The position numbers and the translations under genes were made by a program. From a virus, in the IMG/VR virus record IMGVR_UViG_3300036766_000644, positions 48,685 through 112,684 of that record: a stretch of DNA of 64,000 nt. The stretch is one strand, 5' to 3'. The notes beneath the pieces were generated by a model, which was not told the DNA's origin, searched no databases, and saw only the letters and a program-made list of their open reading frames with translations. Every line of letters begins with the position of its first letter. The stretch's first letter is position 1. Shown in pieces: positions 5,255-35,771 of this stretch.

Positions 5255-5857
5255 TTAGCCGCCGAGGCCGTTATCCGGGGTACCGCCACCACCCTGGAGC
5301 TTGCTCATGGCGTAGGCCATCCCAATCCCCGGGAGTTGTCCCCCGAGGGCGTGACCCCATGTTCCTGCGTGCGCCGGGTCGCCTTTCATTCCACCCATCA
5401 CGTTACTGAGGAAACCGCCATTCGCCGGAGCGGCCGGAGGAGCCGCGGCGCCACCAGCGGCAGGCGCAGCGGCGCCTGCGAGATGACCCTTCACGCCGTC
5501 CCAGATCTGTTGCCCTAGTCCGGGTTGACCCGCCGGTGCGCCAGCAGCGGGAGGAGCGCCAGCAGCGGGAGGAGCGCCAGCAGGAGGTGCGGCGGGAAGT
5601 TGAGGCTTCTTCGTCACACCAACCCCCGCAGTCTGAGGAGCGGCGGCCCCAGCCGCGGCGCCAGCTGCAGGGACGGCGGCCTGCGGCACGGGACCGACGG
5701 CCGGAGCAGCACCTTTAAGCGGCGCAGCCCCAATCGGGGATCCTGTTCGTGCGCTACGGAACACATTCACATTCGTCGGAGGCTTGAACGCCCCCGCCTT
5801 ACAGAACGTACCCCACGCAGCGTTGGACCCCTCGGCGTATGCAAAGTCACTGATCAT
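5255..5857 (-). CDS. low-complexity Ala/Pro/Gly-rich protein (200 aa), probably disordered
   Basis: ORF inside the RNAP operon. Its N-terminus MISDFAYAEG resembles that of the next gene upstream (MMMNLAYAEG). Confidence 0.5.
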   Translation of the reverse strand: MISDFAYAEGSNAAWGTFCKAGAFKPPTNVNVFRSARTGSPIGAAPLKGAAPAVGPVPQAAVPAAGAAAGAAAPQTAGVGVTKKPQLPAAPPAGAPPAAGAPPAAGAPAGQPGLGQQIWDGVKGHLAGAAAPAAGGAAAPPAAPANGGFLSNVMGGMKGDPAHAGTWGHALGGQLPGIGMAYAMSKLQGGGGTPDNGLGG

Positions 5858-6144
5858 ATTGCAGCTCCATCGCGGCCAACGCCGGAGTAGTCGTAAGAAG
5901 AGGCGCCAACGCCCCAGGGAGTAGTCACGCCGCCCCAGCGAACCGGATTACCGAAGCGCTTCTTTTTCTCGTCTTGTGAAGGTGCCTCGTCCTCAAGTTC
6001 GGAGAGGTGCTTGGCGAGACGTTCCGCAGATACACTTAGGTCGCCTTTCGGCATCCCGCGGTGGAAGCTATCGGAAGCGGTCCTGAGACCAAACTCTTCC
6101 TCGGCGCGGGCTTTACCTTCTGCGTAGGCGAGATTCATCATCAA
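5854..6144 (-). CDS. hypothetical small protein (96 aa)
   Basis: ORF with a 4-nt overlap onto the downstream gene. Shares the N-terminal AYAEG motif with its neighbour. Confidence 0.5.
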   Translation of the reverse strand: MMMNLAYAEGKARAEEEFGLRTASDSFHRGMPKGDLSVSAERLAKHLSELEDEAPSQDEKKKRFGNPVRWGGVTTPWGVGASSYDYSGVGRDGAAI

Positions 6145-6286: not shown

Positions 6287-6928
6287 TCAAACGCCCGCTT
6301 GAGGAGTGGTTCCACCGGCGCCTCCTTCGCAGAACATCATCCGGCGTAGATCGTCTGCGTGCTGTTGGTCAGTGAGCGCCATCTGCTCGAGCATCACTTT
6401 GATGGAGAGGTTCTCCCCCGCCATGAGCGATAGGTTACGCAGCTCTTGGATGATCTGCTTCTCAGCCTGAAGCAGGACCATGAAAATCTGGTGGAGGTCG
6501 TTGATGTCCGGGATGGTGCTCACCTTAGGCGTGGGCTCACCACCTAGAGCCGTGATCTTCATCGTGAGGTGGTAGGCGTCTTCACGCTCTTCCCCTGCGT
6601 GCTCCTTGAAGTGGTCGTAGATGACGTCTCGGAAGTGAGCCCGGATCCGGTCACCGTAGTTGATGTACATCATCATCGTGGTGTACTTGAGCTTGAGCAG
6701 CTTCAGGCACTGCGCCACGATCTTTTCCTGAGGGACGGCGAACAGGCCTTCCTCGGGGGAGACGGCCAAGGGATGAACACCCTCAGATGCGGTGGGCTGG
6801 GGGATGGGAACTTCAGCTCCGGCGGCGTCAGACATCTGCGCGTCAGGGGATTGTACTTGCTCCGTAGGAACCTCAATGGCTCCGTCTGACGCGATCTTGT
6901 AGCGCTGCGTGTATACCTTGGTCGTCAC
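6287..6928 (-). CDS. hypothetical protein, possibly ferritin-like four-helix bundle (213 aa)
   Basis: ORF overlapping the beta-beta' stop by 4 nt. Periodic E/H/Q residues (…EHAGEEREDAYH…EKQIIQELRN…LEQMALTDQQHADDLRRM) resemble ferritin or rubrerythrin-like metal ligands. This is a weak call. Confidence 0.55.
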   Translation of the reverse strand: MTTKVYTQRYKIASDGAIEVPTEQVQSPDAQMSDAAGAEVPIPQPTASEGVHPLAVSPEEGLFAVPQEKIVAQCLKLLKLKYTTMMMYINYGDRIRAHFRDVIYDHFKEHAGEEREDAYHLTMKITALGGEPTPKVSTIPDINDLHQIFMVLLQAEKQIIQELRNLSLMAGENLSIKVMLEQMALTDQQHADDLRRMMFCEGGAGGTTPQAGV

Positions 6929-9900
6929 GGGCCCACCTCTACTTTGGTGTTGAGATTTATTTCACCACGCTTGTACGCCGCGTAAGCGTCTGCCTTCGTC
7001 TTGAAGTGGTGCGTTTTGGCGTTGTCCGACCCTACCGCCTTCGTTGCCAAGTGTATCCCTAGCATAGCCTCCATGCGGGGAGCGACCATCAGGCTGTTCT
7101 TCTCTCGGTCGGCGAACAGGAGGTTGGAGAGGGTCAGCCCCTTCACCTCCTGCACAGCGCCTGGGAGGACGGGGACGTGAATCTGGAACGTGTCCCCGTC
7201 GTAGTCGGCGTTCATCCCAAGCTCGATGAAGGGGTTCACCCGAATCGTCTTACCGGCGACAGGGACGGGGTTTGCGCCAACGAAGCCGTAGCGGTGCAGC
7301 GTAGGGGCCCGATTCACCATGACGGGGCGTTCCTTGATCTCCACCATCAAGGCTGTGAGAGCGGCAGGATGCTTCTCCTCTACCATCTCCTTCGAACGAA
7401 CGGCGTTGAACCCCTGGCGCACGAGGCGGGCGATGACGAACTTGCCGTACATCCCCCACAACATGTCGATCGGCAGGCCAATCTCGTCCATGCCCAGAGC
7501 GCCATCGGGAGCGATGGTCCCGCGGCCAGAGACGTCCTGCTGGCGCTTCATGATCTTTTTCTGGAAGAAGCTGCTCTTCGGCGTTGTCTTCCCGGTGATG
7601 TGCTCGAGGAAGCCCTTCACATTGCGCTTCAGGAGCTTCGGGTTGTCCGACTCATGCGTCCCGATGACGGCCCCCACGGCGTTGAACAGATTCTGCCGAA
7701 GCTTGGCGTGTTCATCGGGTGGGAGGATCGGTGACTCAACCTGCCGCTGCAGCGCTTTGTTGTGCAGCATGGCGGCGGCGTAGAGGTAGTTCGCGTCACC
7801 CACGACGAGCTCTGAACCGCCCTTCCCCGCTTGCACTGGGCGCATGATGGGCGGGAGGACCGGGAGCTTGGTCAGCACGTAGGCGTCGCCAGGCTTGAGC
7901 CCCTGCTTGTTCAGCGCGGAGAGAAACTTGAGATGTTTCACCGCGTCGTCCAACTTGACACCACTGCTCTTTTTGATCGATTCTCGAATAGTCTGCATCT
8001 GGCCAGGAACGTCGATGGCGTTCAACTTCTTCTTCACTGCGTCGGCCCCGTGCTGGAACCGGAACAGGTCGAAGTCTTTCGCCGTCATTCCTAGAAGTCG
8101 CCGAGCTGGCTCTGCGAACACAGGGTTTACGACGGACTCGGCCAAGTCGATGTGGCTCCAGCGGGTGCCGTCGGTACCTCCGGTAACCGCCGGGTCGAAC
8201 AACCCACCACGCTCCGCGGCTAGATCTTTGGCGCGGACAAGCTTCTCGTTTTGGATGGCCCCAGAGGACATTCGCATGATGTCCTTGTCCGTGAGAGGCG
8301 ACAGCGTGCTGAGACTCCCTCGAGTGTCCACCTTGACCCCGGCCCCGTGCAGCATGCCGATGAACTTGTCGTAGGCGAACGTCGTCTTCAGCGGAGGCAG
8401 GGGTAGCCCGAGCTGGATGGCCTTCCAGAACTCGTCGTTCTTCTGGCTCTTGATCGCAGCCGTCTCGCGAAGAACGTTGCGGGCGTTGTGCGCTACGAGG
8501 GCGTTGAACTCCATCTTACCGACGGCCTTCGCACCTTCGTCGCCGCCTTTGATGGGCTGCTGATTTACGTCGTACGCCCCAGTACCGCGAGCCGCGAAGT
8601 TGGTCTCGGTGGTCTTGAACAGGCGGAGCACGTACTGCGGCCCGACGAGGATGCCGGGGATCTTCTTGCCCGATACCGGGTCGAACACCGTCTCCTTGTC
8701 CTTGACCCCGTGCTCCTTCATGAGGTCCTTTGTCCACTGCACGTTGTCCCGCCCGGAGAAGTTAGCCACAGCGATCGGTTTACCGATCTTCCTGGCCACT
8801 TTCGCGACACACGTCTCGAGGACTTGAGCCGGGTTGATGCGGGAGATGATGCCTGCGGACGTGTACAGCACGTCCAGGGGTTTACCGCCCTCGTCCTGTA
8901 GCATCTGATGGTCAGGGATGATGCGGGAGACGACGCCCTTGTTTCCGTGGCGTCCCGTGAGCTTGTCGCCTACGCGCATGGGCTCCTTGGTACGCACTGT
9001 GACGAGGACCCGTTTGTCGGTGACGTGAACGTCTGTGACGTCCCCCTCGAAGTCGTGGTCCCAGGTGCGGACGAGCTCACGGTACGGGTTAACGAGCGTC
9101 TTCTTGAAGTTGGCCAGCAGAGTGTCCGACGCGGACAGCTTTCCCTTGGTAACCCCGGCGATCAGGATGTCATGCGGCATGACCTTCATGCCTTTGCGCA
9201 CGACGCCGTTCGCGTCGAGCTTGCGGTACTGGTCCGCGGTGTACTTCGGACCGTAGTACTGGCGGTGCATTTCACGCCCCACGACGGCGTCCCGCTCAAC
9301 CTCCAAAACCTCCTTGTACATGTGCTCCGACGTCAACTTGTCGGCGGCTCCCTCGGAGATGACGACAGCGTCATTCGAGTTCAGCCCGTAGTACGGGATG
9401 TACCCGATGGTCATGTTGCGCCCGAGCGCGAAAGCACCATCGCGGGTGAAGTTGGAATCGGCGAGGCGCTGATTCGCTTCGACGTGATCCCCGGGCTTAA
9501 CGAGGATGTCGTGGTGAAGGTACGTCTTGGATGCGAAGGGAAAGTTGTCCTCGTAGGGTACGCGGATGAGATCTGCTTCGGCTGCGGCCTTCTCGCGCTG
9601 ACGCTCGGAGAGGTAGTCGTCCTGGAACTCGTCCCACGTGTACTCTTCGAGAGACCCAAAGCCCCACTCGGGACCGTGTTTCTGGTACGCCTCCTTCGCA
9701 GCGTCCTTGGAGTCGAAGCCGACCATGCACTTGTCTTCATCGTGCGACCCGTCGCGCTTCTTTTGGCGAACGACGTACACGTGATCGAAGGTACCGTCTT
9801 CCTTCAGGTAGATGTCCACCGTCTCGCCATCATCCCCAACCGTCTTGGGGATGTGCCCGTAGGCGAGAGACATCTTCTTCTCCCACTTCTTGCCCTCAAG

Positions 9901-11736
9901 GGAGACGCCAGAACGAATGTCCCCAGGCTCGAGCTCGAGCTTGAAACACAAGCCCTTGATCGTCTTTTGGCGCTTGACGGCGCCGCCCCTCTTTTCGAAG
10001 GAGTTCTTTTCGAAGACGAAATCCTCGGCGTGCTTCTTCCCGCTTGGGTCGATGTAGATGTACTGCCCGTCGATCCGAACTACCTTCCCCGAAACAGGGG
10101 CGAAAGGAAGCTCCATCAACGCCAGGACCTTCTCCCAGCTCGAGTGCTCCTTACCTTCAGAGTCGCGAATGCCGGATTGAACGAGAGGCGCCTCGCGATG
10201 TACGAGGGGCAGCGCCTGCGTCATGGACTTGCCTCCCATGATGCCGCGGTTCCCCTGCACGGACTCCAAGAAGGGGACAAGGTTTGTCGCCGGGGAGTAG
10301 AGGTGAGAAGCGTCAACGAGGGCGTGCGTGCACGTCGATGCCGGAACCATTTCGACGGTTCCTTTGCGCATCGCAGAGATCATCCCAGACGTCTTCTGGT
10401 TCGGGAACGAGATTACGGCGTTGCCCATCTCCGCCGCGGACAGGAGCGTGTTCTTCCCAGTCTTGAGATCCTTCACCGGGGCGTAGAGGTTGCCGCGCTC
10501 ATCCCTGTGAGCGTACATCGCGGTGCGAATGTCGATGCCCGCTCGGAAAGTCTCCGACGTCCGCACCGGGTCAAGAAGCCCGAAGTGGCTTGAGTGAATC
10601 GTCCGAGCTTCCGCCGGGATTGCCCGCTCATTGGCGATGCCGCCTTCGCCCAGCGAGGTCACGCGAGCTGCGTGGTCGATTGCCTCCATGGGGTTGATGT
10701 GCGTCGGGATCGAGCTCAGCTGAGATCCTGTGAGGAAGCTTCGAATGCCTGCGGAGAACGGAGACGCGGGGAGGATCGTCCGGAGCTCCGTCTTGTGCGT
10801 TGCCCGGCCCTTCACCTTGCTGGCGAGAGCTCGTGCATCCAGGGTGATGCGCTCTTTGATGAAGTCGTCAACGGAGTGGTACGTCTTGAACCGAAGAGCG
10901 TCGCGGTCGTCGGTGTCCTCATTGTTCTTGTAGACGTTGAGGAGGCGCTTCGAAGCAGTCAGCAGGGCGAGGGGCGTCACCGACGCGAACTCGTGCCCGA
11001 GTGTTTCTTTAGTCACCCCAGGGTCCATCGCTGTCGTCGAGTACGCCGCTTTCACAGCCTCCAGCTGTGTCTCAGGGTTCGTCGCCGTTCGCTTGGCAGG
11101 ATGGACCAGTTTCTCGTAAAGCTTGGCGAGGTGTTTGTCGTGCTTTCCGTCGAATTCCGCCTCATTCTTTCCCGCGACATCAGAGCCCCACGCCGTAGCG
11201 ATCTCCCCGTGAGCCGTACCGAGCTTACGGAGTACTGAGTAAAGAGGAATCGCGGTGGTCCCGTACTCGATGTACGGGTGACCCTTTGTAGGGTCCATGG
11301 ACAAGCGGAAGTTCATGCCCTTCGACAAGTTGAAGGCTGCCTCGAGCTCTTCGTTTCCGCGACGCCGAGTGTACACACCTGGCTTGAGGCGCAGCTGGTT
11401 CGAGACGTTGTACTCGTTGCCGTCCAGGATGAAGGTGTGGCGCCCTGTGAAGTAGGGGAGGTTCAGCAGCGTGAAGTTCTTGACCTTCTCGAGCTCCTTG
11501 CCCGCTGCGTCACGAAGGACGACGGTGCCTTTGACCTGCTCGAACAAGGAGCCGCCGCTGAGCAGGGCGTTCTTCTGATCCTTCGGACCGAAGTCTTTCT
11601 CGTGAACCTTTAGATCTGTGAGCTCGATACGCTTATCGCGTAGCGCCAAGGGGAAAGCCGTCTTGAGCGCCTCCAGCGCCTTCGCCCGAATGTTGGTTCG
11701 GCGAGACTCCGGGTCTGTCATCACAGGGGTCAGCAT
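6925..11736 (-). CDS. fused RNA polymerase beta + beta' N-terminal (catalytic) half, 1603 aa
   Basis: Beta hallmarks GRHGNKGVVSRIIP and GKMEFNALVAHNA (cf. GEMEVWALEAYGAA). Beta' hallmarks follow in the same frame: VLPPIMRPV, NRAPTLHRYGFVGANPV and the NADYDGD Mg-binding loop (cf. NADFDGD). Highly diverged from cellular enzymes. Confidence 0.9.
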   Translation of the reverse strand: MLTPVMTDPESRRTNIRAKALEALKTAFPLALRDKRIELTDLKVHEKDFGPKDQKNALLSGGSLFEQVKGTVVLRDAAGKELEKVKNFTLLNLPYFTGRHTFILDGNEYNVSNQLRLKPGVYTRRRGNEELEAAFNLSKGMNFRLSMDPTKGHPYIEYGTTAIPLYSVLRKLGTAHGEIATAWGSDVAGKNEAEFDGKHDKHLAKLYEKLVHPAKRTATNPETQLEAVKAAYSTTAMDPGVTKETLGHEFASVTPLALLTASKRLLNVYKNNEDTDDRDALRFKTYHSVDDFIKERITLDARALASKVKGRATHKTELRTILPASPFSAGIRSFLTGSQLSSIPTHINPMEAIDHAARVTSLGEGGIANERAIPAEARTIHSSHFGLLDPVRTSETFRAGIDIRTAMYAHRDERGNLYAPVKDLKTGKNTLLSAAEMGNAVISFPNQKTSGMISAMRKGTVEMVPASTCTHALVDASHLYSPATNLVPFLESVQGNRGIMGGKSMTQALPLVHREAPLVQSGIRDSEGKEHSSWEKVLALMELPFAPVSGKVVRIDGQYIYIDPSGKKHAEDFVFEKNSFEKRGGAVKRQKTIKGLCFKLELEPGDIRSGVSLEGKKWEKKMSLAYGHIPKTVGDDGETVDIYLKEDGTFDHVYVVRQKKRDGSHDEDKCMVGFDSKDAAKEAYQKHGPEWGFGSLEEYTWDEFQDDYLSERQREKAAAEADLIRVPYEDNFPFASKTYLHHDILVKPGDHVEANQRLADSNFTRDGAFALGRNMTIGYIPYYGLNSNDAVVISEGAADKLTSEHMYKEVLEVERDAVVGREMHRQYYGPKYTADQYRKLDANGVVRKGMKVMPHDILIAGVTKGKLSASDTLLANFKKTLVNPYRELVRTWDHDFEGDVTDVHVTDKRVLVTVRTKEPMRVGDKLTGRHGNKGVVSRIIPDHQMLQDEGGKPLDVLYTSAGIISRINPAQVLETCVAKVARKIGKPIAVANFSGRDNVQWTKDLMKEHGVKDKETVFDPVSGKKIPGILVGPQYVLRLFKTTETNFAARGTGAYDVNQQPIKGGDEGAKAVGKMEFNALVAHNARNVLRETAAIKSQKNDEFWKAIQLGLPLPPLKTTFAYDKFIGMLHGAGVKVDTRGSLSTLSPLTDKDIMRMSSGAIQNEKLVRAKDLAAERGGLFDPAVTGGTDGTRWSHIDLAESVVNPVFAEPARRLLGMTAKDFDLFRFQHGADAVKKKLNAIDVPGQMQTIRESIKKSSGVKLDDAVKHLKFLSALNKQGLKPGDAYVLTKLPVLPPIMRPVQAGKGGSELVVGDANYLYAAAMLHNKALQRQVESPILPPDEHAKLRQNLFNAVGAVIGTHESDNPKLLKRNVKGFLEHITGKTTPKSSFFQKKIMKRQQDVSGRGTIAPDGALGMDEIGLPIDMLWGMYGKFVIARLVRQGFNAVRSKEMVEEKHPAALTALMVEIKERPVMVNRAPTLHRYGFVGANPVPVAGKTIRVNPFIELGMNADYDGDTFQIHVPVLPGAVQEVKGLTLSNLLFADREKNSLMVAPRMEAMLGIHLATKAVGSDNAKTHHFKTKADAYAAYKRGEINLNTKVEVGP

Positions 11737-17924: not shown

Positions 17925-18823
17925 CCAAAGGAAATGTCCTCGAACATACCCAGGTGGTGAACGTGAAAGAATCAAGAACCGACGCGCTGCTCCGCCAACT
18001 GAAGGTGGAGGCGGGCTTCCTCGATCCGAAACTGCCGAAGGGTTTCTTTTCGAATTCGCAGTACAACAGCTGGCTCATCTGCGGACGAGCGTACGAGTTC
18101 AAGTACGTGCAGCAGATCTCCACGCCTGACTACGCCTCGACGAGCCGGGGTAACGCGGTGCACGCAGGGGCTGAGCACATGCTCAACGCCAAGATGGCGG
18201 GCAAGCCCCTGAACATCGACGAGGGGCGCGAAGTCGTCAGTCAGACCTTCGACGCCAAGGCGAAGGGCGTCATCGACTGGGGCGAAGAGGACCCCGTGAA
18301 GGTGAAGAACCTGGCGATGGATCTTTTCAAGGCGTACACCACGTACGCACTACCGAAGATCAACCCAGTCGCCATCGAGAAGGGATTCGCCAAGAAGGTC
18401 GGAGACGTTCCGATGATTGGGTGGATCGACCTCATCGACAAACAGCCCGCCATCGCCGTTCCTGGGATGACCGTGGCCCAGCTGGCAGAAGCACCGAGCA
18501 AGCTGGTGGTCGCCGACCTGAAGACCGGTAAGGCGAAGTGGAGCGAAAAGGAGGTGGCGCTGGACCCGCAGCTAACCCTCTACTCCTTCGTAGAAGGCGT
18601 TCCCGACGTTCGCATCGACCAGCTCATCGCGCACAAGAAGGCTCCGACCTTCATCCAAGCGCCCAGCACGCGTACACCCCGAGACGCCGCGATCCTCACA
18701 GACCACATCAATGAGGTTGCGGAGTACGTGAAGAAGGGTGTATTCCCGAAGACCCCGATCGACAACTGGTCCTGCAACAAGGACCACTGCTCGTTCTTTC
18801 ACCTGTGTCGCGGTAAGCAGTAA
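17921..18823 (+). CDS. Cas4/RecB-like PD-(D/E)XK nuclease with C-terminal Cys cluster (300 aa)
   Basis: GWIDLID…VVADLKTGK forms the D…D/ExK core. C-terminal WSCNKDHCSFFHLC looks like Fe-S/Zn ligands, as in Cas4/AddB. Confidence 0.75.
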   Translation: MTKGNVLEHTQVVNVKESRTDALLRQLKVEAGFLDPKLPKGFFSNSQYNSWLICGRAYEFKYVQQISTPDYASTSRGNAVHAGAEHMLNAKMAGKPLNIDEGREVVSQTFDAKAKGVIDWGEEDPVKVKNLAMDLFKAYTTYALPKINPVAIEKGFAKKVGDVPMIGWIDLIDKQPAIAVPGMTVAQLAEAPSKLVVADLKTGKAKWSEKEVALDPQLTLYSFVEGVPDVRIDQLIAHKKAPTFIQAPSTRTPRDAAILTDHINEVAEYVKKGVFPKTPIDNWSCNKDHCSFFHLCRGKQ

Positions 18824-18841
18824 CCCCCAAAGGAGAATCAA

Positions 18842-19183
18842 GTGGCCATCAAGATGAGCATGACGTGTACCCGCTGTCACCGTGAAGACATCCACGAGAT
18901 CGAGAACCTCGCTACCGCGACGGCTTTCGAGGAACTGCAGAAGCGGAAGGCTGCAACGCTGGCCAAGCTCCAGGCCTTCATCGCCAGCCTCCCCGCCGAC
19001 GAGCTCCCGGACTTCTTCGCAGTGCTCGGCGACAAGAGCCTGGTGCACAGCTACCTGTGCGACCCGGTTGACGCGAAGCGGTCCTGCGCCAAGCGAGTGG
19101 GCGACCTGCTCGAAGGTGTGACGGAGCTCGGGCCTCGCAAGCCGAAGACGAAGAAAGAGAAGGTCGAGAAGACCGCGGAGTAA
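18842..19183 (+). CDS. hypothetical protein (113 aa)
   Basis: GTG start with AAGGAG 6 nt upstream. N-terminal CTRCH. Confidence 0.5.
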   Translation: MAIKMSMTCTRCHREDIHEIENLATATAFEELQKRKAATLAKLQAFIASLPADELPDFFAVLGDKSLVHSYLCDPVDAKRSCAKRVGDLLEGVTELGPRKPKTKKEKVEKTAE

Positions 19184-19201
19184 TCGCTCGAGGGACCCCC
19201 G

Positions 19202-19390
19202 GTGACCAACATGGAAAAATACGGCGTTGAGGAAGTACCTGAAGACGTAAAGACTGCGGCAGCGGGGGAGAAAAAGTGTCCCGTCTGTAGCGCACCTCTA
19301 CGTCCCGTCGCGGTCACCGGGGTTCTCTTGTGCCCCAAGTGTGGATCAAAACCATTCGAGGCGTCGGATGCCGACACGAAGCCCCGTTAG
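19202..19390 (+). CDS. hypothetical zinc-ribbon protein (62 aa; CPVC…CPKC)
   Basis: Small ORF. The start could be GTG 19202 or ATG 19211. Confidence 0.45.
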   Translation: MTNMEKYGVEEVPEDVKTAAAGEKKCPVCSAPLRPVAVTGVLLCPKCGSKPFEASDADTKPR

Positions 19391-19625
19391 TAAAGACACA
19401 GCGCGCGCTCAACGAAATTTAGCGGCGCAGCAGCACCTCATCTACAAGCTCAAAGCGATCCGTGCGCTCTGGATAACCGCGCACAACACCCCGCAGGCTA
19501 TTGAGAAGATGGAACGAGAGTTTCTCTTCCTGGTGGGGGAGATCGTTGAAGGCACCCCGGTAGAAAAGTTGACGATGAGCAACATCAACCGCGACGCGTT
19601 CATCCGTGAGTTCAACGACGGGTAG
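19368..19625 (+). CDS. hypothetical protein (~85 aa; start uncertain)
   Basis: ORF overlapping the previous gene. The track begins it at GTG 19341. Confidence 0.35.
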   Translation: MPTRSPVSKDTARAQRNLAAQQHLIYKLKAIRALWITAHNTPQAIEKMEREFLFLVGEIVEGTPVEKLTMSNINRDAFIREFNDG

Positions 19626-19668
19626 CGCGCTGTACGCAGTAAACCAAACCCTCACCTGGAGGAGCCCT

Positions 19669-20646
19669 ATGGCTACCGCCGAAGCACCCGTGTCACCTGA
19701 AGCCGCTCCCGCTGCACCCGTCATCCCCGACGCACCCGTGAAGTCTTCCAAGCGGACGCCGGGGCGCTACATCGAGCTCTCCATCAAGGACATCGTCACC
19801 AAGGCTGGGGACAACGTTCGCACCGGAGAACTGCCGGACATCGAGAAGCTCGCAGCGAGCATCGCCGCTGAAGGAGTCATCGAACCGATCATCGTCACGG
19901 AGTCCACTGAAACCCCGGGCAAGTACACCGTCGTCGCAGGGCACCGGCGGCTCACGGCTGTTCGCAGCCTGGAGGACATGCTCACCATCCCCGCGCTCAT
20001 CATCGACGCCGACGCAGATCGTCGTCTCAAGCTGGCGCTCATGGAGAACATCCACAGGGAAGACATGTCCCCGTTGGACAAGGCCAAGGCGCTGTCGAAG
20101 CTCATGAAGAACACCAAGCTCGAGCAGCAAGAGGTAGCGCAGGCTATCGGCGTTGCTCCGGGCTACGTGTCGCAGTACCTCGCACTGCTGGAGCTCCCGG
20201 AGTCAGCGCTCAACGCACTGCGTGATGGGGAAATCTCGTTCACGCACGCACGCACGCTCTGCCGCCTGGGGACGAACGTCAAGGCAATCGATGACCTGAT
20301 GTTCGAGATCTCGGATCTCACCGTCGCAGCGCTCGACGCCAAGGTCTCGCACATCCTGTCGCAGACGCGAAAGGCTGCTGCGGAGGCGGAGGACGCCGCT
20401 GAACCGGAAGCCGACGCCGACGGAACGAAGCCGAAGAAGGCAAAGAAGGCGAAGGCGCCCCCATCCGAGAAGGAGATCGTCTACTATTCGGAGGCGGAAT
20501 TCCGTCCGATGAAGAAGGAGGACATGCGCGACCTGATGGTGACGTGGAAGCGCAAGGAGGTCAACGCCGACACGGAGGCGAAGCAGCTGGAGTACAAGAA
20601 CATTCTCAAGGGCATCACGCTCGCGGCGAACCTCCGCTTCAAGTGA
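19669..20646 (+). CDS. ParB/Spo0J-like protein with ParB N-terminal nuclease-like domain and HTH (325 aa)
   Basis: EPIIVT…YTVVAGHRRLTA is the ParB GxRR box. LEQQEVAQAIGVAPGYVSQYLALL looks like an HTH. GGAGG lies 6 nt before ATG 19669. Confidence 0.75.
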   Translation: MATAEAPVSPEAAPAAPVIPDAPVKSSKRTPGRYIELSIKDIVTKAGDNVRTGELPDIEKLAASIAAEGVIEPIIVTESTETPGKYTVVAGHRRLTAVRSLEDMLTIPALIIDADADRRLKLALMENIHREDMSPLDKAKALSKLMKNTKLEQQEVAQAIGVAPGYVSQYLALLELPESALNALRDGEISFTHARTLCRLGTNVKAIDDLMFEISDLTVAALDAKVSHILSQTRKAAAEAEDAAEPEADADGTKPKKAKKAKAPPSEKEIVYYSEAEFRPMKKEDMRDLMVTWKRKEVNADTEAKQLEYKNILKGITLAANLRFK

Positions 20647-20786
20647 ACCCTCTCGTACTCAAAGTCATCGGCGTCCTGGCGGCGTACCGAAAGTGGTATG
20701 CCGCCGGGATGACGGATAAAGAGATCTCCCAGAAGATCCGCGAGACGTACCCGGCACAAGCTCGGCCGTTCCGCCCTACTCGGTAA
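20643..20786 (+). CDS. hypothetical small protein (47 aa)
   Basis: GTGA overlap with the parB-like stop. Low confidence. Confidence 0.3.
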   Translation: MNPLVLKVIGVLAAYRKWYAAGMTDKEISQKIRETYPAQARPFRPTR

Positions 20787-21609
20787 AGACGTCGCGAGCG
20801 CCACCAACCTGGTTCGCAACCAAGTAGACTCGTAGCTGGGCCATCGTATCTTTTTTGATCTGGCGTACTCTCTCGGAGGACAAGTCAACTCGCTTTGAGA
20901 TTTGTCGGAGGTTCTTCGGTTCCTCCCGGGCTCCGAAGTACGCCAGGACGATGTACTTGTCTCGCTCTCGTAACGCCAAGCCGTCTAGCGCGGAACGGAG
21001 CATGTTGAACCCATAGGAATTTACGAGGTCGCGTTCGAGGGTGTTGTCGCCGTGCCCTGCGTCGTCGATGGCATCAACGACGTCAAGCGTAACGTGGGCG
21101 GCTTCCACCTCAGTACCCCCGCCATGCTTTCGTAGCGCTCGTAGGGCCTTCTGTTTATGCGCGGGGACACGAATGATGCCCTGGCTGTCGAGCTCTTCAA
21201 GAATCTTTTCACGGACCCACCAGGCGGCGTACGTCAAGAACTTGGTGTTTCTCGTCGTATCGAACCGGTCCGCGGCTACCAACAGACCGATGTTCCCCGC
21301 GGAAATGAGCGTCGTCAAGACGTCGCTCTCGAAGTTAACGCCTCGAGTACGGTACGCATATTCCTTGGCCACCTTCACCACGAAACGAAGCGCGCCGGAG
21401 ATGAGCCGGTCGCGTGCTTTGAAGTTTCGAGGAGCACTGCACTTGGCGCAGCGAACCAAAGAAGACCCTAAGGGGTAGGTGTTTCGACAGGACGAACAGG
21501 TTCGGTACGCCGCGACAAGAGCGGCCTCTTCGCTCTGTGAAACAAAGGAGTTACCTCGCATGTCCGCAAAATACGCCTCAATGACTCGGTCACCGTCGTC
21601 GTTGCTCAT
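20776..21609 (-). CDS. sigma-70 family sigma factor with N-terminal Cys4 zinc ribbon (277 aa)
   Basis: Region 2: LISGALRFVVKVAKEY…NIGLLVAADRFDTTRNTKFLTYAAWWVREKI (cf. LIEANLRLVVSIAKKY…[31 protein letters not shown]). Region 4 HTH: LRERDKYIVLAYFG…LRQISKRVDLSSERVRQI. N-terminal CSSC…CAKC. Confidence 0.85.
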   Translation of the reverse strand: MSNDDGDRVIEAYFADMRGNSFVSQSEEAALVAAYRTCSSCRNTYPLGSSLVRCAKCSAPRNFKARDRLISGALRFVVKVAKEYAYRTRGVNFESDVLTTLISAGNIGLLVAADRFDTTRNTKFLTYAAWWVREKILEELDSQGIIRVPAHKQKALRALRKHGGGTEVEAAHVTLDVVDAIDDAGHGDNTLERDLVNSYGFNMLRSALDGLALRERDKYIVLAYFGAREEPKNLRQISKRVDLSSERVRQIKKDTMAQLRVYLVANQVGGARDVFTE

Positions 21610-23749: not shown

Positions 23750-26662
23750 ATGCCTAAGCCACACCCTATTTGCGTTGGGTGTCCTCGAGAGGCATGCTCC
23801 GAGACACACCAAAATAGCTACGTCGACGCACCGATAACGTCAGACGCAGATCTCATCGTCCTGGTAGAAGCGCCAGTCTGCGACAGGTACGGTAACGTCA
23901 AGCAAGCCTTCAAGGATGACAGCGGCACGATCATCAAGACGGCTGTCGGAAACCTGAAGCTACAGGAGAAGTACCGCGGACTGAACGTCGCATACGCTTA
24001 CGCCGTGCGGTGCACCAGCAATCAAGGTGACCCCGAGCCGGGCAAAGCGATCCTGATGAAGTGCAAGACGCTCCTGCAGGAGGAGCTCGGTGCTACGAAG
24101 AAAAACCCTGTCATCCTCGCCATGGGGATGACCGCCGTACGCGCTCTGGACATCAAGGGTACGAAGCTCAAGGACATGCAGGGGCGGCTCCTGCCGCAGC
24201 AGCTGGTAGAGACCCCAACGGGGCCCCGGAAGTTCGACACGGTCATCACGATCTCTACGAAGCAGCTTGTCGCTGTTCCTGGGCTCTACACGACGTTCCT
24301 CGCAGACCTGGAGCGTGCGGCCGCAGCAGCGACGACTGGCGGGTTCAACGCTGTTCCCGCTATCGAGACGCTGACCAAAGACTACGTCATCCCGAAGACG
24401 GTCGAAGAAGTCAAAGCCGTCTGTAAGATGATCATGGAGTACACGGAGGGCAACATCCTCCCGGAGAACTGGCCAATCTCGATTGACACCGAGACGAACA
24501 CCAAGTTCCCTCACCGGAGCCACCTCTGGATCCTGGCGGTGTCCATCGCGTGGGCTCCGGGGAAAGCTACAGCGATCCCTCTGTGGCACCCCGGCGTGGG
24601 CGGATACGACCCGCTGGACGTACTCCCGTACCTGTTGCCGCTGCTCGCGTCGAAGAAGCCAAAGTTCTTCCACAACGCGAAGTTCGACCTCAAGGTGTTC
24701 ATGAAGGTCGCGTGGGAGATCGGTAACTTCACCTGGGACAGCATGACAGGCGAGCACGTGCTCGAGGAGGACAAGAAGGGGCAGCACGGCCTGAAGCCGC
24801 TGACGCGGACGTACTTCCCAGACTTTGCGTCGTACGCAGACGCCCTGCACGAGATCCTCACGAAGGAAGAGGGGGACTCACAGCTCCACAACCTTCGAAA
24901 GGTGCTGAAGGCGAAGGTCGCTGGCAGCCGGAAGAAAAAGGGTGGCGCCGAGAAGGACGGGGGATTCGAGAAGATCCCGCTCCACACCCTGCTCCTCTAC
25001 GCCGCGGTAGACGCCGACATGACACGGCGGCTGGGGCTGGGGCAGGATAAAAGAATCCTCATCGAGCAGAACGCCGTCATCAAGCGGAAGTTCGAAGTCG
25101 GGCAGAAGCAGGCGGTACTCAAAGCGCGAGGGATGGAGGCATTCGAAGTCCCCACGCTGTGTGACTCCGAGCGGCCCATCAAGAGGCTGGCTCTCAGGAA
25201 CGTGTTCCCGGTAACCCCGGCACTAGCACGCATGGAGTTCCAGGGGATCAAGATTGACCGGCCGTACTTGGTGACCCTGCAAGGGGATCTGGAGAAGGTC
25301 GTCACGCAGACAACCAAAGAGCTCTACGACATGGCGGGGGACTTGAAGCTGAACAGTCCCGCTGAGATCGCTCGCATCCTGTTCGTAGACGGGTACACGC
25401 ATCCGGTCACCGGAGCTAAAACGGTGTGGCCGCTGACGGGGATCACGAAAACAAAGAAGGGGCAAACCCAGACGACCGAGAAGGTGATGAAGTACTTGGT
25501 CGCTGCGTACCAGTGCCCTTTCGCGTCCAAGAAACTGATCTACTCGAAAGCGTTCAAGGCTAAAAATACCTTTTGCCAGAACGTGTGGGACTTGTCCGAG
25601 CTGGATGGGTACCTGCACACGAACTACAACCAGCATGGGACAAACTCAGGGCGGCTCTCATCCAACGATGAGAACATGCAGAACATCCCGAAGAAGCTGG
25701 CGGGCGTAAACATCAAGAAGGTGTTCGTCACCGACGACGAGTACGAGTACCTCTTCGTCAACGCCGACGCAAAGGGGGCCGAGGTCCGCATCCTCACGGC
25801 CTACTGCCACGACGCAGCGCTCATCGCATCGTTGAACGCCGGGCAGGACACGCACTGCTACATCGCGTCTAAGATCGTGGAGATCGTTCGCCAGTCACCT
25901 GGGGCCAAAGAAGTGCTGGCCTCCATGAACCTCTCGGACGAGTACCCGCTGGTGTACGACGACTTCGCGGCGAGAGAAGTACTGAAGGAGACACACAAGG
26001 CCTACGGCGAGATGCTGGACAAGTTCCGTACGGCGGTGAAGCGGGTCGTGTTCGGTATTCTGTATGGCGCCGGGCCTCAGAAAATTGCCGAGACTATTGG
26101 TATTAGCTTACAGCAAGCACAACAGCTCATTGACATGTTGTTCACGCTGTTCCCGTCGATCAAGGGCTACATGGCCCAGACTCGTTGGGAGCTGCAGCAG
26201 TTCGGATTCGTCGAAACGTTCTTCGGGAGGCGCCGTCGTTTTAGCGTCGTCAATGCCCCGAAGTACTTGCTGGGCCGAGCTGAGCGGCAAACGGTTAACT
26301 TCAAGATCCAGAGCACGAGCTCAGACATCGTCATGGGGCGCCTCGTGGCGCTCGAGGCTCCCCTTCGGGAGCTTGGCGGTAGGATCCTGTTGACCGTGCA
26401 TGACAGCATTGGTTTTCAGATCAGGAAGAAGTACGCCTCACAGTTGCCGGACTTCATCTACCAGTACCTCGAGAAGGGGGCCGCGGAAGCTCACCCGTGG
26501 CTGCCCGTTGCATTCAAGTGGGACTACGAAGTTGGGCCCTCGTACGGAGAGCTCAAGGGACTGGACGCGTACCTGAAGAACACCCAAACCAAGGAGTACA
26601 GTAACGATGCCGCCGAAGCCTATACCGAAGAGGAGGTCCGAACCGCGCTTGCCGAAGTTTAA
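23750..26662 (+). CDS. polA: family A DNA polymerase with 3'-5' exonuclease domain and N-terminal UDG-family-4-like domain (970 aa)
   Basis: ISIDTETN (Exo I) and HNAKFDLKVF (Exo II). Pol motif A region: YLHTNYNQHGTNSGRLSS. O-helix: RRRFSVVNAPKYLLGRAERQTVNFKIQSTSSD. Motif C: LTVHDS. N-terminal ~190 aa carry CVGCP…LVEAPV…AVGNL…YAVRC…ILAMGMTAVRAL, which looks UDG family 4-like. Confidence 0.9.
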   Translation: MPKPHPICVGCPREACSETHQNSYVDAPITSDADLIVLVEAPVCDRYGNVKQAFKDDSGTIIKTAVGNLKLQEKYRGLNVAYAYAVRCTSNQGDPEPGKAILMKCKTLLQEELGATKKNPVILAMGMTAVRALDIKGTKLKDMQGRLLPQQLVETPTGPRKFDTVITISTKQLVAVPGLYTTFLADLERAAAAATTGGFNAVPAIETLTKDYVIPKTVEEVKAVCKMIMEYTEGNILPENWPISIDTETNTKFPHRSHLWILAVSIAWAPGKATAIPLWHPGVGGYDPLDVLPYLLPLLASKKPKFFHNAKFDLKVFMKVAWEIGNFTWDSMTGEHVLEEDKKGQHGLKPLTRTYFPDFASYADALHEILTKEEGDSQLHNLRKVLKAKVAGSRKKKGGAEKDGGFEKIPLHTLLLYAAVDADMTRRLGLGQDKRILIEQNAVIKRKFEVGQKQAVLKARGMEAFEVPTLCDSERPIKRLALRNVFPVTPALARMEFQGIKIDRPYLVTLQGDLEKVVTQTTKELYDMAGDLKLNSPAEIARILFVDGYTHPVTGAKTVWPLTGITKTKKGQTQTTEKVMKYLVAAYQCPFASKKLIYSKAFKAKNTFCQNVWDLSELDGYLHTNYNQHGTNSGRLSSNDENMQNIPKKLAGVNIKKVFVTDDEYEYLFVNADAKGAEVRILTAYCHDAALIASLNAGQDTHCYIASKIVEIVRQSPGAKEVLASMNLSDEYPLVYDDFAAREVLKETHKAYGEMLDKFRTAVKRVVFGILYGAGPQKIAETIGISLQQAQQLIDMLFTLFPSIKGYMAQTRWELQQFGFVETFFGRRRRFSVVNAPKYLLGRAERQTVNFKIQSTSSDIVMGRLVALEAPLRELGGRILLTVHDSIGFQIRKKYASQLPDFIYQYLEKGAAEAHPWLPVAFKWDYEVGPSYGELKGLDAYLKNTQTKEYSNDAAEAYTEEEVRTALAEV

Positions 26663-26948
26663 GCCGATTCAGGACGACGTCCTCGACGAGTGGCGCAACA
26701 CACTCGTGAAGGTCTTCACGGTGACCGGTGGTTGCTTGACGGGAGTCCTCATCAAGTATGACCACAAGTCACTGATCATCTCACCCAAAACCTGTGTGCA
26801 ACGAAAGCACATAGTCTCACTCTACCAGGATCGAAATGGCCCCAATCAAAAAGCTGCAGGACCTGCTGTTCGTGGACACGGAAACGACGGGGCTCGACTC
26901 GACGAAGCACGAGCTACTGGAAGTAGCAGCGATAAGAACAAGCCCTGA
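26607..26948 (+). CDS. Hfq/Sm-like protein candidate (113 aa) overlapping polA 3' end and dnaQ 5' end
   Basis: IQDDVLDEWRNTLVKVFTVTGGCLTGVLIKYDHKSLIISPK…RKHIVS aligns with Hfq Sm1 ([34 protein letters not shown]) and Sm2 (YKHAIS). AAGGAG lies 10 nt upstream of the ATG. Confidence 0.5.
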   Translation: MPPKPIPKRRSEPRLPKFKPIQDDVLDEWRNTLVKVFTVTGGCLTGVLIKYDHKSLIISPKTCVQRKHIVSLYQDRNGPNQKAAGPAVRGHGNDGARLDEARATGSSSDKNKP

Positions 26949-27420: not shown

Positions 27421-28290
27421 GTTAGTTGGTCGCGAGATCTTGCATCGGAGAATATCCGACGCCTCTGTAGCAGAGGCCGTGTACTTCGGAGATTTTGAAG
27501 CCTAGCTTCTGCAGCAGCAGTAGGTCTGCCCGAGTACACCCAGATGTCTCATGAACTGTTCGGTTGCACGCACCACCAGGGTGCTGCCACATACGACACA
27601 GACAAAGAAGAATCGCGACAGTCACGCAGTAAAAGATCTTGCTCCGGTACCTTTCCGGCGCCTCCGTAGTGGAGGCACTACCCCCGGGTCTCCTCACAGC
27701 CTAGCTGTATCGAAGACCAGGAGGTCTTAGCGACGATCGTAGCCGCGGGTGTTGCCCGCAGCTCCTCGAGGGCCCCAGTCGCCGAGCTGCTCGAACTGAT
27801 TGAACAAAGAAGATCTTGCTGTAAACTTTCCTGCTCCGGTACCAGTCCGGCGTCTCCGTAGTGGAGACTTTTACACGGCGGTGTCTGCGCGAAGCCTAGC
27901 TTCGCTGGACACCCAGGGTCCAAGACATTACCGGATCCTCCCGCGGCGTCGAGCTCGAGTACCGTACCTCGGGTCTCCGGCGGCCGCTAGTACGATTGAA
28001 CAAAGAGGAAAGATCACGTAGTCCGTAAATTCTTGCACCGGTACCTACCCGGCGTCTCCGTAGTGGAGACATTGAGGCCGTGGGTGTATGAGAGCCTAGC
28101 TCTTGCACACCCAGGAGGTTTCTTACCGCGGCGCCAATGATGGCGTCGTCTCGAACTCCTTCGGCCCCTTGATGACCTGCAGCTCTTCGAGATGGAAAAC
28201 AAAGAAGAATTTACGCAGTACCGTAGTGGTGATTCGTTTTGTGTGCCTAGGCACCGTCAGCGTAGTGCTGACTAGATCTCTTAGCTGCCC
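27421..28290. repeat. tandem array of ~4.5 units of ~200 nt, candidate structured ncRNA genes. Units start near 27421 (truncated), 27602, 27803, 27999 and 28198.
   Basis: Each unit shares AACAAAGA(A/G)GA, AGATC, CTTGC.CCGGTACC, CCGGCG(C/T)CTCCGTAGTGGAG(G/A)C, GCCTAGC, CACCC(A/C)GG and TCGAACT. No ORF is consistent across units. Two hairpins show compensatory changes between units. Confidence 0.8.
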
Positions 28291-28295
28291 CGCGA

Positions 28296-28374
28296 GATAG
28301 TTCCCGGGGGGCGGAGGAACTATCATCCAAGGAGTCACCACGTGTGCGAGAAGTCCGGCCTGGAGAGGCCGGAC
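28296..28374 (+). promoter_or_regulatory. two perfect hairpins upstream of gene 28397 (GATAGTTCC…GGAACTATC and GTCCGGCC-tggaga-GGCCGGAC), flanked by duplicated AGGAGTCACCA(C/T)G sequences
   Basis: Inverted repeats read directly. The second AGGAGTCACC serves as the RBS of ATG 28397. Could be a terminator for the repeat array or a translational attenuator. Confidence 0.4.
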
Positions 28375-28396: not shown

Positions 28397-28582
28397 ATGA
28401 AGATCGTGTCATTCGTCGTACGTCTCCACTGCGAACACTGCGATGGGACGGGGAGGATTCCCGGAGGTCAACGCGAGTACGGGGAGATGGTGTCGTGCCT
28501 CTACTGTAAAGGGTACGGGACCGTCGCAGGGGATGTATCGTTCGAAGACTTCGCCAAGCTCATCCAAGGGATCGCCAAGTGA
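28397..28582 (+). CDS. zinc-ribbon small protein (61 aa; CEHCDG…CLYCKG)
   Basis: AGGAG lies 6 nt before the ATG. Two CxxC pairs. Confidence 0.55.
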   Translation: MKIVSFVVRLHCEHCDGTGRIPGGQREYGEMVSCLYCKGYGTVAGDVSFEDFAKLIQGIAK

Positions 28583-28800
28583 AGAAGCTGCTTCTACTGC
28601 TCGCGCTCTCGGCGTGCGACGCCATCGATAAGAAGCTGTCCGAGTCGTACGACGTCACCTGCTACTCAGCGGACACGATCATTTACCACGGGTACGCCGA
28701 AGGTCGAATCGCGCAAGACGGGCCAGTCTGGTATTTCAAGGAAGCGAAGACTGGAAAGTTCATCCGCGTCAGTGGTAACTGCCTCATCATCCGGGAGTAG
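28579..28800 (+). CDS. putative lipoprotein (73 aa) with signal peptide and lipobox LSAC
   Basis: MKKLLLLLALSAC. GTG start overlaps the previous stop (GTGA). Possible o-spanin or exclusion lipoprotein. Confidence 0.55.
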   Translation: MKKLLLLLALSACDAIDKKLSESYDVTCYSADTIIYHGYAEGRIAQDGPVWYFKEAKTGKFIRVSGNCLIIRE

Positions 28801-34145: not shown

Positions 34146-35771
34146 ATGGCAACTACCACTACCACAGGCGACGAGAACGAACTGCAGAAGTCGCTGGTTT
34201 ACCTCGTGAGTCGCAGAGGTGCCTCGAATTACTGGTGCACCGTCGTGAACGGGATGGACAAGCGTTTCACCAATGGCGACGGGACTCTGTCGGTCCAGCT
34301 GGCGCCGAACTTCAGGTACCTGCTCACCGTCCACCTGCCCTTCTTCGAGAAGTGCTCCCCGACGATGAAGCGGCTCGCGTTGGTGCACGAGGCAGCGCAT
34401 GTCTGCCTGAACCACATCCCCCGGCTGTTCAAGATGGTGGCGAACTGCACGGATCCCTTCGTACGCAAGGCCATCCTGGCGACGTTCAACTTCGCCGCGG
34501 ACTTCGCAGCGAATGACGCCATCGTACGACTCGAGCCGGGATTCGAGGAGACGCACCGCAAGATGGGCACGGCGACCGGCGAGTTCCCGTTCCTGCTGCC
34601 CGAGGAGTTCGGGTTCCCGAAGGGGCTCTCGATGGAGGAGTACTTCACGCTGATGCTGAAGGACCTCCCCAAGATCAAGCAACAGATCCAGCGCATGCTC
34701 CAGGATTTGATGGAGCAGATGGAAGGCGGGGATACGCCCGGAGAAGGAGACGGCGAGGGTGAAGGTGACGGTGAAGGTGGAGGCTCCGGGGGTGGAGACG
34801 TTCTGCGTTCTCCGTTCGGGCGTGGGCGCGGCTCTGGCCTGCCGAACAACATCCCGGGGTTGCCTGAGTCTCTGATCGAGCACGCCATCAACGAGCCTGA
34901 GACCTTCGACATGCTGCAGAAGGCCTTCGACAAGATGACGGGTAAGGGCCACCGCCAGTGGAACGAGAAGGCGGAGCAGATGACCCCCGAGGAGGCAGTC
35001 TCAGCGGGCAACAAGATGAAGAAGCACGCCCAGGCGCTGGCGCGTTCAGCGAATGAGCGCATCAACCGTGACCGCGGCTTCATGGCGGGGTCGGTTCAGA
35101 GGATCATCGACGCACTGCTCGAGCCGGAGCAGATTCCCTGGGACTCGTTCCTGCGGGACATCATCCAGGGCGCCATCTCGGCCCGGGTGCAGGAGGAGAT
35201 GGGCGCGCCAAACCTGGCGCTCATCAACGAGGACTACATGGAGCCCTGGCCCGGCCAGATGCTGGAGTTCGGGTTCAACATCACCTGGATGACGGACACC
35301 TCGGGATCGATGGGGGACGCGGAGTACGTACGTGCCTGTGCGTGCATCAACTCGCTGCTCGCTCAGAACAAGGCGGTGTTCGTGACGTACTGCGAGTGCG
35401 ACGCCGCGATGCAGAAGGAGGTCCGCGTCACCAACGTGGAGCCGCCTTCTGATGAGTACGTGAAGGAGCTCCTGAACCGCCGTGGGCACGGAGGCACCGT
35501 CTACACGCCGTTCTTTAAGCGTGTCGCCGGGGCTGACGTTCCCTCGGATTGGGTGGCCGGTGCGCCCAAGCTCGATGAGAAGCACCCGAAGCCGGACCTC
35601 ATGGTCGTCTGTACCGATGGTGGTGTGGGGCTGATGGGTGAGTGCTTCCCGCAGTTCCGCCCTGACTGCCCCATCATCTGGCTGGTGATGCCGGGGTGTT
35701 CACCCTGCGAGGGGATGGACAATGTGTCACCGAATCGCGTGATCGAGATGTTCTCAATGAAGGAGGAATAA
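34146..35771 (+). CDS. vWA-domain protein with N-terminal HExxH metallopeptidase-like (DUF2201-like) domain (541 aa)
   Basis: HEAAHVCLNH in the N-terminal domain. MIDAS motif DTSGSMGD followed by …VVCTDGG. Typical partner of MoxR-type ATPases. Confidence 0.85.
   Translation: MATTTTTGDENELQKSLVYLVSRRGASNYWCTVVNGMDKRFTNGDGTLSVQLAPNFRYLLTVHLPFFEKCSPTMKRLALVHEAAHVCLNHIPRLFKMVANCTDPFVRKAILATFNFAADFAANDAIVRLEPGFEETHRKMGTATGEFPFLLPEEFGFPKGLSMEEYFTLMLKDLPKIKQQIQRMLQDLMEQMEGGDTPGEGDGEGEGDGEGGGSGGGDVLRSPFGRGRGSGLPNNIPGLPESLIEHAINEPETFDMLQKAFDKMTGKGHRQWNEKAEQMTPEEAVSAGNKMKKHAQALARSANERINRDRGFMAGSVQRIIDALLEPEQIPWDSFLRDIIQGAISARVQEEMGAPNLALINEDYMEPWPGQMLEFGFNITWMTDTSGSMGDAEYVRACACINSLLAQNKAVFVTYCECDAAMQKEVRVTNVEPPSDEYVKELLNRRGHGGTVYTPFFKRVAGADVPSDWVAGAPKLDEKHPKPDLMVVCTDGGVGLMGECFPQFRPDCPIIWLVMPGCSPCEGMDNVSPNRVIEMFSMKEE

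Follow-up and report, generated by a model that had tools for sequence, protein, structure and literature searches.

A putative Hfq-family protein encoded between, and overlapping, polA and an exonuclease gene in a lineage of large uncultured phages

Can a small open reading frame (ORF) that overlaps the genes on both of its sides be a gene in its own right, and if so, to which family does its product belong and what might it do? This question is raised by a locus in the virus record IMGVR_UViG_3300036766_000644, of which a stretch of 64,000 nucleotides (nt) was analyzed; this stretch is called the window here, and all coordinates refer to it unless another contig is named. A preliminary description of the window had pointed to an Hfq/Sm-like ORF placed between polA, encoding a family A DNA polymerase, and a gene for a DnaQ-like exonuclease. 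Its coordinates, the lengths of both overlaps (56 nt with polA and 113 nt with the exonuclease gene), the AAGGAG ribosome-binding site, and the quoted peptide were all correct on re-reading, and polA, the Hfq-like ORF, and the exonuclease gene use three distinct reading frames. The analysis presented below indicates that the ORF is, with high confidence, a genuine protein-coding gene whose product belongs to the Hfq family and adopts an Sm fold. The features of the locus are compiled in Table 1.

The evidence for a coding frame comes mainly from the 173 nt that the ORF shares with no other gene (26663 to 26835). Counting of variable sites by codon position in a DNA alignment of six loci gave 20, 9, and 49 sites on positions 1, 2, and 3 of the Hfq-like frame, which argues for purifying selection on this frame. 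Pairwise ratios of nonsynonymous to synonymous substitution rates (dN/dS), calculated by the Nei-Gojobori method for eight loci, were 0.02 to 0.15 over 52 core codons, with dS often saturated. Both termini follow the neighboring genes instead. In the overlap with polA (26607 to 26662), 14 of 18 variable sites are third positions of polA codons and hence position 2 of the Hfq-like frame, and in the tail (26877 to 26948), 23 of 24 fall on third positions of the exonuclease gene. The variable-site pattern and the low dN/dS thus show that only residues ~19 to 76 are constrained as protein in the Hfq-like frame. Constraint on the polA and dnaQ frames alone, which the preliminary description had named as the observation that would speak against a gene, is contradicted by the core. 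Its suspicion that gene callers tend to drop the frame was not borne out either, as the frame is among the called genes of all related public contigs. Five homologues from a large protein database (59 to 80% identity, 89 to 98 amino acids [aa]) were each called by an annotation pipeline, and homologues of 75 to 98 aa are called as genes in public metagenomes.

We then asked to which family the product belongs. The window protein alone matches the Pfam Hfq profile (PF17209) with 14.7 bits (E = 0.024) over profile positions 1 to 43 of 64, and an early profile built from 6 sequences gave marginal results both against the PDB (Hfq at E ~0.6) and in hhalign. The Hfq signal became clear once distant members, found by an exhaustive profile search of 1.84 billion representatives, had entered the alignment. 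This search yielded sixteen credible small homologues of 59 to 92 aa; P0012 (4,240 aa) and P0013 (598 aa) were judged to be spurious matches to repeat proteins and were excluded. The profile of the resulting family alignment of 21 sequences retrieved Hfq for all of its ~37 best matches in the PDB (best E = 1.1e-6), and in the same search, Hfq entries ranged from E = 1e-6 to 1e-3, whereas Lsm/SmAP entries were mostly at E >1e-2. Alignment of the family to four canonical Hfq sequences with hhalign covered the whole Sm domain at 93% probability and E = 2.8e-7. Among the 21 members, 13 match Pfam Hfq (best 4.3e-10), 9 match LSM, and 5 match Hfq_1. P0021, a 36 to 39% identical relative encoded in a primase–polA–…–Hfq-like–exonuclease context, reaches 39.5 bits against Pfam Hfq (cutoff, 27), and another member has been named "sRNA-binding regulator protein Hfq" by JGI. 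Homologues are detectable down to 30% identity, and the family is rare, with about 16 to 20 sequence clusters in billions of proteins. A tblastn search with the window ORF against 50,697 GenBank phage records returned nothing significant, and neither the ORF nor any of the 21 family members matched PHROGs.

The AlphaFold monomer model agrees with these profile matches. It consists of an N-terminal helix (residues 23 to 28) followed by a strongly bent, five-stranded antiparallel beta-sheet (residues 33 to 38, 43 to 51, 55 to 59, 62 to 65, and 69 to 74), which is the Sm topology, and the core has a predicted local distance difference test (pLDDT) score of 83 to 86. The edge strands beta4 and beta5, which form the ring interface in Sm proteins, are present in the monomer model. 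Its best structural matches in the PDB are Hfq proteins, including 5uk7, in which Hfq is bound to double-stranded DNA (dsDNA). Also among the matches is 9lu5 (2026), a complex of Escherichia coli Hfq with the phage T4 neck proteins gp13 and gp14 in C6 symmetry, which hints that phage proteins can have Hfq rings as structural partners and is of relevance to non-RNA roles. Judged from its sequence relatives and the predicted fold, the product falls into the bacterial Hfq branch of the Sm superfamily as a divergent member, in line with the identity first proposed for it.

At the level of single residues, the Sm1 motif is kept. The pattern noted in the preliminary description was right in that G46 and D52 match G34 and D40 of Hfq (E. 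coli numbering), and an aromatic residue, F37, stands at the position of Y25. G46 is invariant across the 21 members, and D52 and L48 are at least 90% conserved. In the clade of the window, Q22 aligns with Hfq Q8, and in the window protein, the Sm2 stretch reads R66-K67-H68. The proposed equation of RKHIV with the Sm2 motif YKHAI of Hfq survived only in part: the basic residue R66 is nearly invariant in the family and, according to the deeper profile alignments, most likely aligns with K56, but this register differs by one residue from that of the early alignment, and the equivalents of Y55 and H57 vary across the family. The equivalent of F42 is K54. At the place of the rim arginine patch (R16, R17, and R19), the window protein has R30-N31 followed by a 2-residue deletion, and this region is variable in the family. 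Many Gram-positive Hfq proteins are described as lacking the arginine patch as well (PMC3753642); its absence would count against a strong annealing activity, not against membership in the Hfq family. Since pocket and rim residues are not conserved, canonical uridine binding at the proximal face and arginine-driven annealing cannot be assumed.

We also examined how the two ends of the gene are maintained within the neighboring genes. The ATG inside polA is kept in all nine relatives, and a Shine-Dalgarno sequence (AAGGAG or AAGGAA) precedes it in 9/9. The polA Asp codon that donates the A and T of this ATG is GAT in all nine, although GAT accounts for only 14 to 24% of the polA Asp codons; this fixed, disfavored codon is a synonymous-site signature of the overlapping start. 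A start codon 3' of the polA stop was considered and rejected, as the sole in-frame candidate, GTG (V34), is GTA or GTC in relatives. The polA C-terminal tail under the leader is conserved and acidic, and the leader itself is basic. The tail sequence, AAEAYTEEEVRTxLAxV, is conserved even in the distant relative L015, whose Pfam-positive Hfq gene lies ~430 nt farther downstream of the polA tail and does not overlap it, which argues that the leader was overprinted on a tail that polA retains for its own reasons. In L015, a 168-aa ORF (5502 to 6008, plus strand) begins within the polA tail, is headed by the same overprinted basic leader (MKPQKRTPKKKSAP…), and lies just upstream of the Pfam-positive Hfq gene. 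The profile match of this ORF to the Hfq-like family is weak (hhalign, 77%; E = 2e-5), and it may hold a degenerate Sm-like segment; the L015 pair may be Sm-like paralogues in tandem or the state from which the leader-plus-domain layout of the window arose.

At the other end, all relatives have the start of the exonuclease gene within the 3' part of the Hfq-like gene, with overlaps of 29 to 113 nt. The stop codon in relatives is found 29 to 62 nt into the exonuclease gene, stops at 41 to 62 nt going with proteins of 89 to 98 aa. In the window and in L013 and L014, a Val codon of the exonuclease gene reads GTG, not GTT, by which the TGA is lost and ~24 residues are added. The long overlap in the window thus goes back to a synonymous change (GTT>GTG) in the exonuclease gene that abolished the usual stop. 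The added C-terminal residues are unconstrained and have a pLDDT of about 50 in the AlphaFold model. The locus is a clean case of overprinting at gene ends, with a start held by a fixed rare polA codon and a stop moved by a synonymous change in the downstream gene.

TABLE 1 Features of the polA–Hfq-like–exonuclease locus and of the adjoining repeat array
Feature	Coordinates	Strand	Details and basis
Hfq-like ORF, complete	26607-26948	+	ATG at 26607, TGA at 26946-26948; 113 aa plus stop
polA, family A DNA polymerase, 970 aa	23750-26662	+	Pfam DNA_pol_A, 3.4e-70; DNA_pol_A_exo1, 5.7e-12; synteny
DEDDh (RNase T/DnaQ-like) 3'-5' exonuclease, 194 aa	26836-27420	+	Pfam RNase_T, 1.3e-21
Shine-Dalgarno sequence AAGGAG	26591-26596	+	10 nt before the ATG; same letters form polA Lys-Glu codons
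Basic N-terminal leader, residues 1-18 (MPPKPIPKRRSEPRLPKF)	26607-26662	+	Overprinted on the last 19 polA codons
Sm/Hfq domain core, residues ~19-76	26661-26834	+	Codon-position bias, dN/dS, AlphaFold, profile matches
C-terminal tail overlapping the exonuclease gene	26836-26948	+	Beyond ~residue 90, lineage-specific read-through, unconstrained in the Hfq-like frame
Tandem array, four good units and one degenerate unit, ~190 nt each	27436-28320		Covariation, covariance model
Unit cores of the array	27436-27544, 27635-27744, 27827-27938, 28029-28138, 28232-28320		

The exonuclease gene is followed by an array of structured repeats. Each unit is made up of a conserved module of ~110 nt with three hairpins, a hypervariable segment of ~80 nt, and an A-rich linker (AACAAAGAAGA); the variable segments are essentially unalignable even between close relatives. 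The three stem-loops have the forms CCGG–7 nt–CCGG, GYCYSC–GTAGT–GSRGRC, and a long covarying stem around AGC-CYA-GCT. RNAalifold identified compensatory double changes at 7 of 16 pairs, and a single G·U-rich pair in the module may just belong to a 5-nt loop. The units also contain an AGATCT-centered palindrome. A covariance model of the module matched nothing but the array within the 64-kb window, and on related contigs it found copies directly after the exonuclease gene in L001, L007, L013, and L014 and a weak match in the distant L015. The Hfq-like gene, the exonuclease gene, and the structured element thus form a conserved trio. Neither a sigma-70-like promoter nor a strong terminator was found that separates polA, the Hfq-like ORF, the exonuclease gene, and the array from one another.

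Comparison of the array with known RNAs gave no tRNA match and no Rfam family even at E values up to 1, and inspection of its variable parts by eye on both strands revealed no small conserved ORFs with a consistent start or frame. The linker-type motif AACAAAGARGA occurs 16 times in the window with ≤1 mismatch (1.7 expected), mostly on the plus strand; exact copies are confined to the array, and other sites include 25450, 35786, 43934, 50816, 54381, and 56127. This motif may be a phage-specific regulatory or processing signal. The preliminary description had regarded the Hfq-like gene and the repeats as a self-contained riboregulatory unit. What stands of this view is that the array is real, structured, and conserved beside the Hfq-like–exonuclease pair; the regulatory part is a hypothesis that is not supported by a U-tail, an Rfam match, or targets in the window. 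The array is a candidate noncoding RNA array, origin, or packaging element.

What could a protein of this kind do next to an exonuclease? By analogy with Hfq and other Sm proteins, it would assemble into a ring, probably a hexamer, which would bind nucleic acid in single-stranded form, the likeliest targets being RNA 3' ends or A/U-rich tracts. Such a ring could work with the exonuclease on the 3' ends of phage nucleic acids, by holding, presenting, or protecting them, and the downstream structured repeats, perhaps the 3' region of the operon itself, would be plausible substrates. Joint work on 3' ends appears to be the most likely role because the overlapping Hfq-like–exonuclease pair is kept in relatives down to 36 to 39% identity and the structured element follows the exonuclease gene. 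To the explanation as a whole, which starts from a genuine gene for an Hfq-family Sm protein, we assign a probability of about 0.75. Of its parts, the gene and its Hfq-family Sm fold are the most secure, a functional partnership with the exonuclease in acting on RNA 3' ends is put forward tentatively, and a role of the adjacent repeats as specific clients of the Hfq-like protein is doubtful.

Several observations weigh against this explanation. The window protein lies below the Pfam Hfq gathering threshold (14.7 versus 27 bits), and neither the uridine-pocket residues F42, Y55, and H57 nor the rim arginines of E. coli Hfq are conserved in the family. The repeat units contain no terminator or U-tail after the conserved hairpins and no clear (ARN)n Hfq site, with at most two consecutive ARN triplets in the linker. 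Folding energy favors neither strand of the array (z scores of −2.4 to −4.2 on both strands), and complementarity of the variable segments to the rest of the window was no better than that of shuffled controls. Finally, the gene sits in a DNA replication module and Hfq also binds DNA, so the substrate could be DNA.

Alternatively, the Sm ring could act on DNA as a replication accessory that aids polA and the DEDDh exonuclease by binding single strands or primer-template junctions or by compaction, in which case the repeats would not be RNA clients but would serve as DNA, for example as an origin or a packaging-related site. This would suit the position of the gene inside a primase–polA–Hfq-like–RNase_T exonuclease block, which is found in close and distant relatives down to 36 to 39% identity, and the overlap of its frame with both polA and the exonuclease gene. 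It would also be in keeping with the poor conservation of canonical RNA-binding residues, with repeat units that fold alike on either strand, as DNA hairpins would, and contain a palindrome, and with the presence of the Hfq–dsDNA structure 5uk7 among the structural matches. E. coli Hfq is documented to bind DNA and to affect DNA transactions (PMC4963395). However, we found no precedent for an Sm ring as a polymerase accessory, and the nearest relatives in sequence and structure are all RNA chaperones; we regard this alternative, the main rival, as rather unlikely. The exonuclease matches PHROG 192, "DNA polymerase exonuclease subunit" (7e-34), but polA carries a 3'-5' exonuclease domain of its own (DNA_pol_A_exo1), so the separate RNase_T-family enzyme need not be a proofreader. 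The equally conserved tie of the array to primase, polA, and exonuclease fits replication or end processing just as well.

A special case of cooperation at 3' ends is that of a dedicated chaperone, with the units being phage small RNAs (sRNAs), each composed of a scaffold and a variable targeting segment, which the ring would stabilize and anneal to targets. Every relative with sequence at this place has the array after the Hfq-like–exonuclease pair (with a weak match in L015), the window has it nowhere else, the hairpins show compensatory changes, and the succession of ~110-nt module, ~80-nt hypervariable segment, and linker resembles RNAs built from a scaffold and a variable region. The phage also has its own RNA polymerase and sigma factor. 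Still, the units lack a terminator or U-tail and an Rfam match and fold alike on both strands, the complementarity of their variable segments to the other 63 kb does not exceed chance, the rim arginines, which drive annealing, are missing, and the colocation could merely reflect a shared operon 3' region or an origin, which makes this model unlikely. Even less probable is a full three-part RNA module, in which a private Hfq-like ring and the DEDDh exonuclease together would mature and load the ~190-nt RNAs as guide-like or regulatory RNAs; if true, such a module would be carried by a clade of large phages that have an RNA polymerase of their own. The protein might instead serve in host takeover, its ring competing or mixing with host Hfq and sequestering sRNAs, mRNAs, or RNase E and PNPase. 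The descent of the family from Hfq and its divergent binding faces could suit a decoy, and phages have been described to exploit Hfq-dependent regulation via their own sRNAs (bioRxiv 10.64898/2026.06.19.733364). With no prophage copy in 185,579 species genomes and no explanation for the tight linkage to polA and the exonuclease gene, we consider a decoy very improbable. As to whether the frame is merely a chance opening in DNA of ~60% GC that spans a noncoding spacer between polA and the exonuclease gene, it is true that high-GC DNA yields many long chance ORFs (dozens in the ORF list of the window) and that both ends of this one are governed by the frames of the overlapping genes. The third-position bias and dN/dS of 0.02 to 0.15 in the unshared core, homologues down to 30% identity, and the confident prediction of an Hfq-like fold leave hardly any probability for this reading.

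The phages concerned form an environmental lineage known from metagenomes only, with genomes of ~190 kb and ~60% GC. The same 113-aa version of the protein is encoded in two phage genomes from IMG/VR (187 and 190 kb). No match to the polA–exonuclease region was obtained by blastn, and tblastn revealed no similar phage among the 50,697 GenBank records. The 185,579 GTDB species genomes contain no copy of the Hfq-like gene and hence offer no clue to a host or prophage. On related contigs, the order is polA, a small ORF, and the RNase_T exonuclease gene, followed by a gap of 750 to 900 nt and, in convergent orientation, the gene for the large terminase. Besides a multisubunit RNA polymerase and a sigma-70-like factor, the phage encodes an SNF2 helicase, a class II ribonucleotide reductase, and a VapE-like primase/helicase.

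Some further genes of the region were noted in passing. A 1,602-aa ORF (6925 to 11736, minus strand) combines RNA polymerase beta (Rpb2_3 and Rpb2_6), an inorganic-pyrophosphatase-like insert (PF18823, 7e-31), and the N-terminal part of beta-prime (Rpb1_1 and Rpb1_2). Such a fusion of beta and beta-prime with a pyrophosphatase-like insert is unusual in a phage. Rpb1_5 is found in a separate ORF of 598 aa, and there is a sigma-70-like factor (window positions 3452 to 5251 and 20776 to 21609, both on the minus strand). The stretch from the array to the terminase gene holds two small genes, one for a 61-aa CxxCxGxG zinc-finger protein resembling Anti-TRAP (28397 to 28582, plus strand; E = 2e-4) and one for a 73-aa protein with a lipoprotein-like signal (MKKLLLLLALSAC; 28579 to 28800, plus strand); both are preceded by AGGAGTCAC ribosome-binding motifs, which recur in relatives. 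In L001, a reverse transcriptase gene (RVT_1; 18651 to 19805) is located about 8 kb downstream of the Hfq-like gene and adjoins a DUF2201/VWA-like gene, which the window has too (34146 to 35771).

For now, the finding chiefly improves the annotation of a rare group of uncultured phages. What makes it interesting is mainly that the gene is conserved together with an exonuclease gene and a covarying repeat array, besides the tidy terminal overprinting. The conserved partners suggest either an RNA-processing module private to the phage or the recruitment of an Sm ring to DNA replication, and the family offers a concrete, testable case of a small, easily expressed protein with a conserved exonuclease and array as neighbors.

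An Hfq-like gene in a phage is rare but not unprecedented, as actinobacteriophage entries in UniProt and BFVD show; distant members of the present family are automatically annotated as Hfq. Structural neighbors in BFVD include the "Hfq-like domain-containing protein" of the Mycobacterium phages Tonenili and Phabba, likewise a phage-encoded small Sm-type beta-barrel, and the Sm-type "RNA binding protein" of Gordonia phage Reyja. A tblastn search with Bacillus subtilis Hfq found canonical hfq in 7 of the 50,697 GenBank phage records, most of which resemble bacterial contamination, and canonical hfq is carried by the gut phage contig MT835489. These annotated phage Hfq-like and Sm proteins have no sequence relation to the window family that was detectable with PHROGs or by tblastn against the phage records. 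We know of no annotated phage protein of the Hfq-like or Sm-fold type that has been functionally characterized. The literature searched describes phage sRNAs that use host Hfq and gave no phrase match for a phage-encoded Hfq, so as far as it shows, a phage-borne Hfq-family protein has been uncharacterized so far.

With bacterial Hfq (PF17209; e.g., Aquifex 5szd, Staphylococcus aureus 1kq1, B. subtilis 3ahu, and Caulobacter 6gwk), the protein shares the predicted Sm fold of a helix and five strands, a core of ~60 residues with a disordered C-terminal tail, the Sm1 signature, and a basic residue, R66, most likely at the position of K56. Unlike bacterial Hfq, it is encoded by a phage in a DNA replication operon, overlaps both of its neighbors, has a 2-residue deletion after helix 1, and bears a basic N-terminal leader of ~18 residues overprinted on polA. 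By profile comparison, it is closer to Hfq than to the SmAP/Lsm proteins of archaea and the Lsm proteins of eukaryotes (PF01423), and there is no sign of a heptameric ring. In its layout, the gene resembles other overlapping, translationally coupled phage genes, which likewise start in the upstream gene and stop in the downstream one and whose overlapped parts evolve under the frame of the other gene. It differs from overprinted phage genes in that the overlaps touch its termini only and that its otherwise independent domain is of ancient origin and was not born by overprinting.

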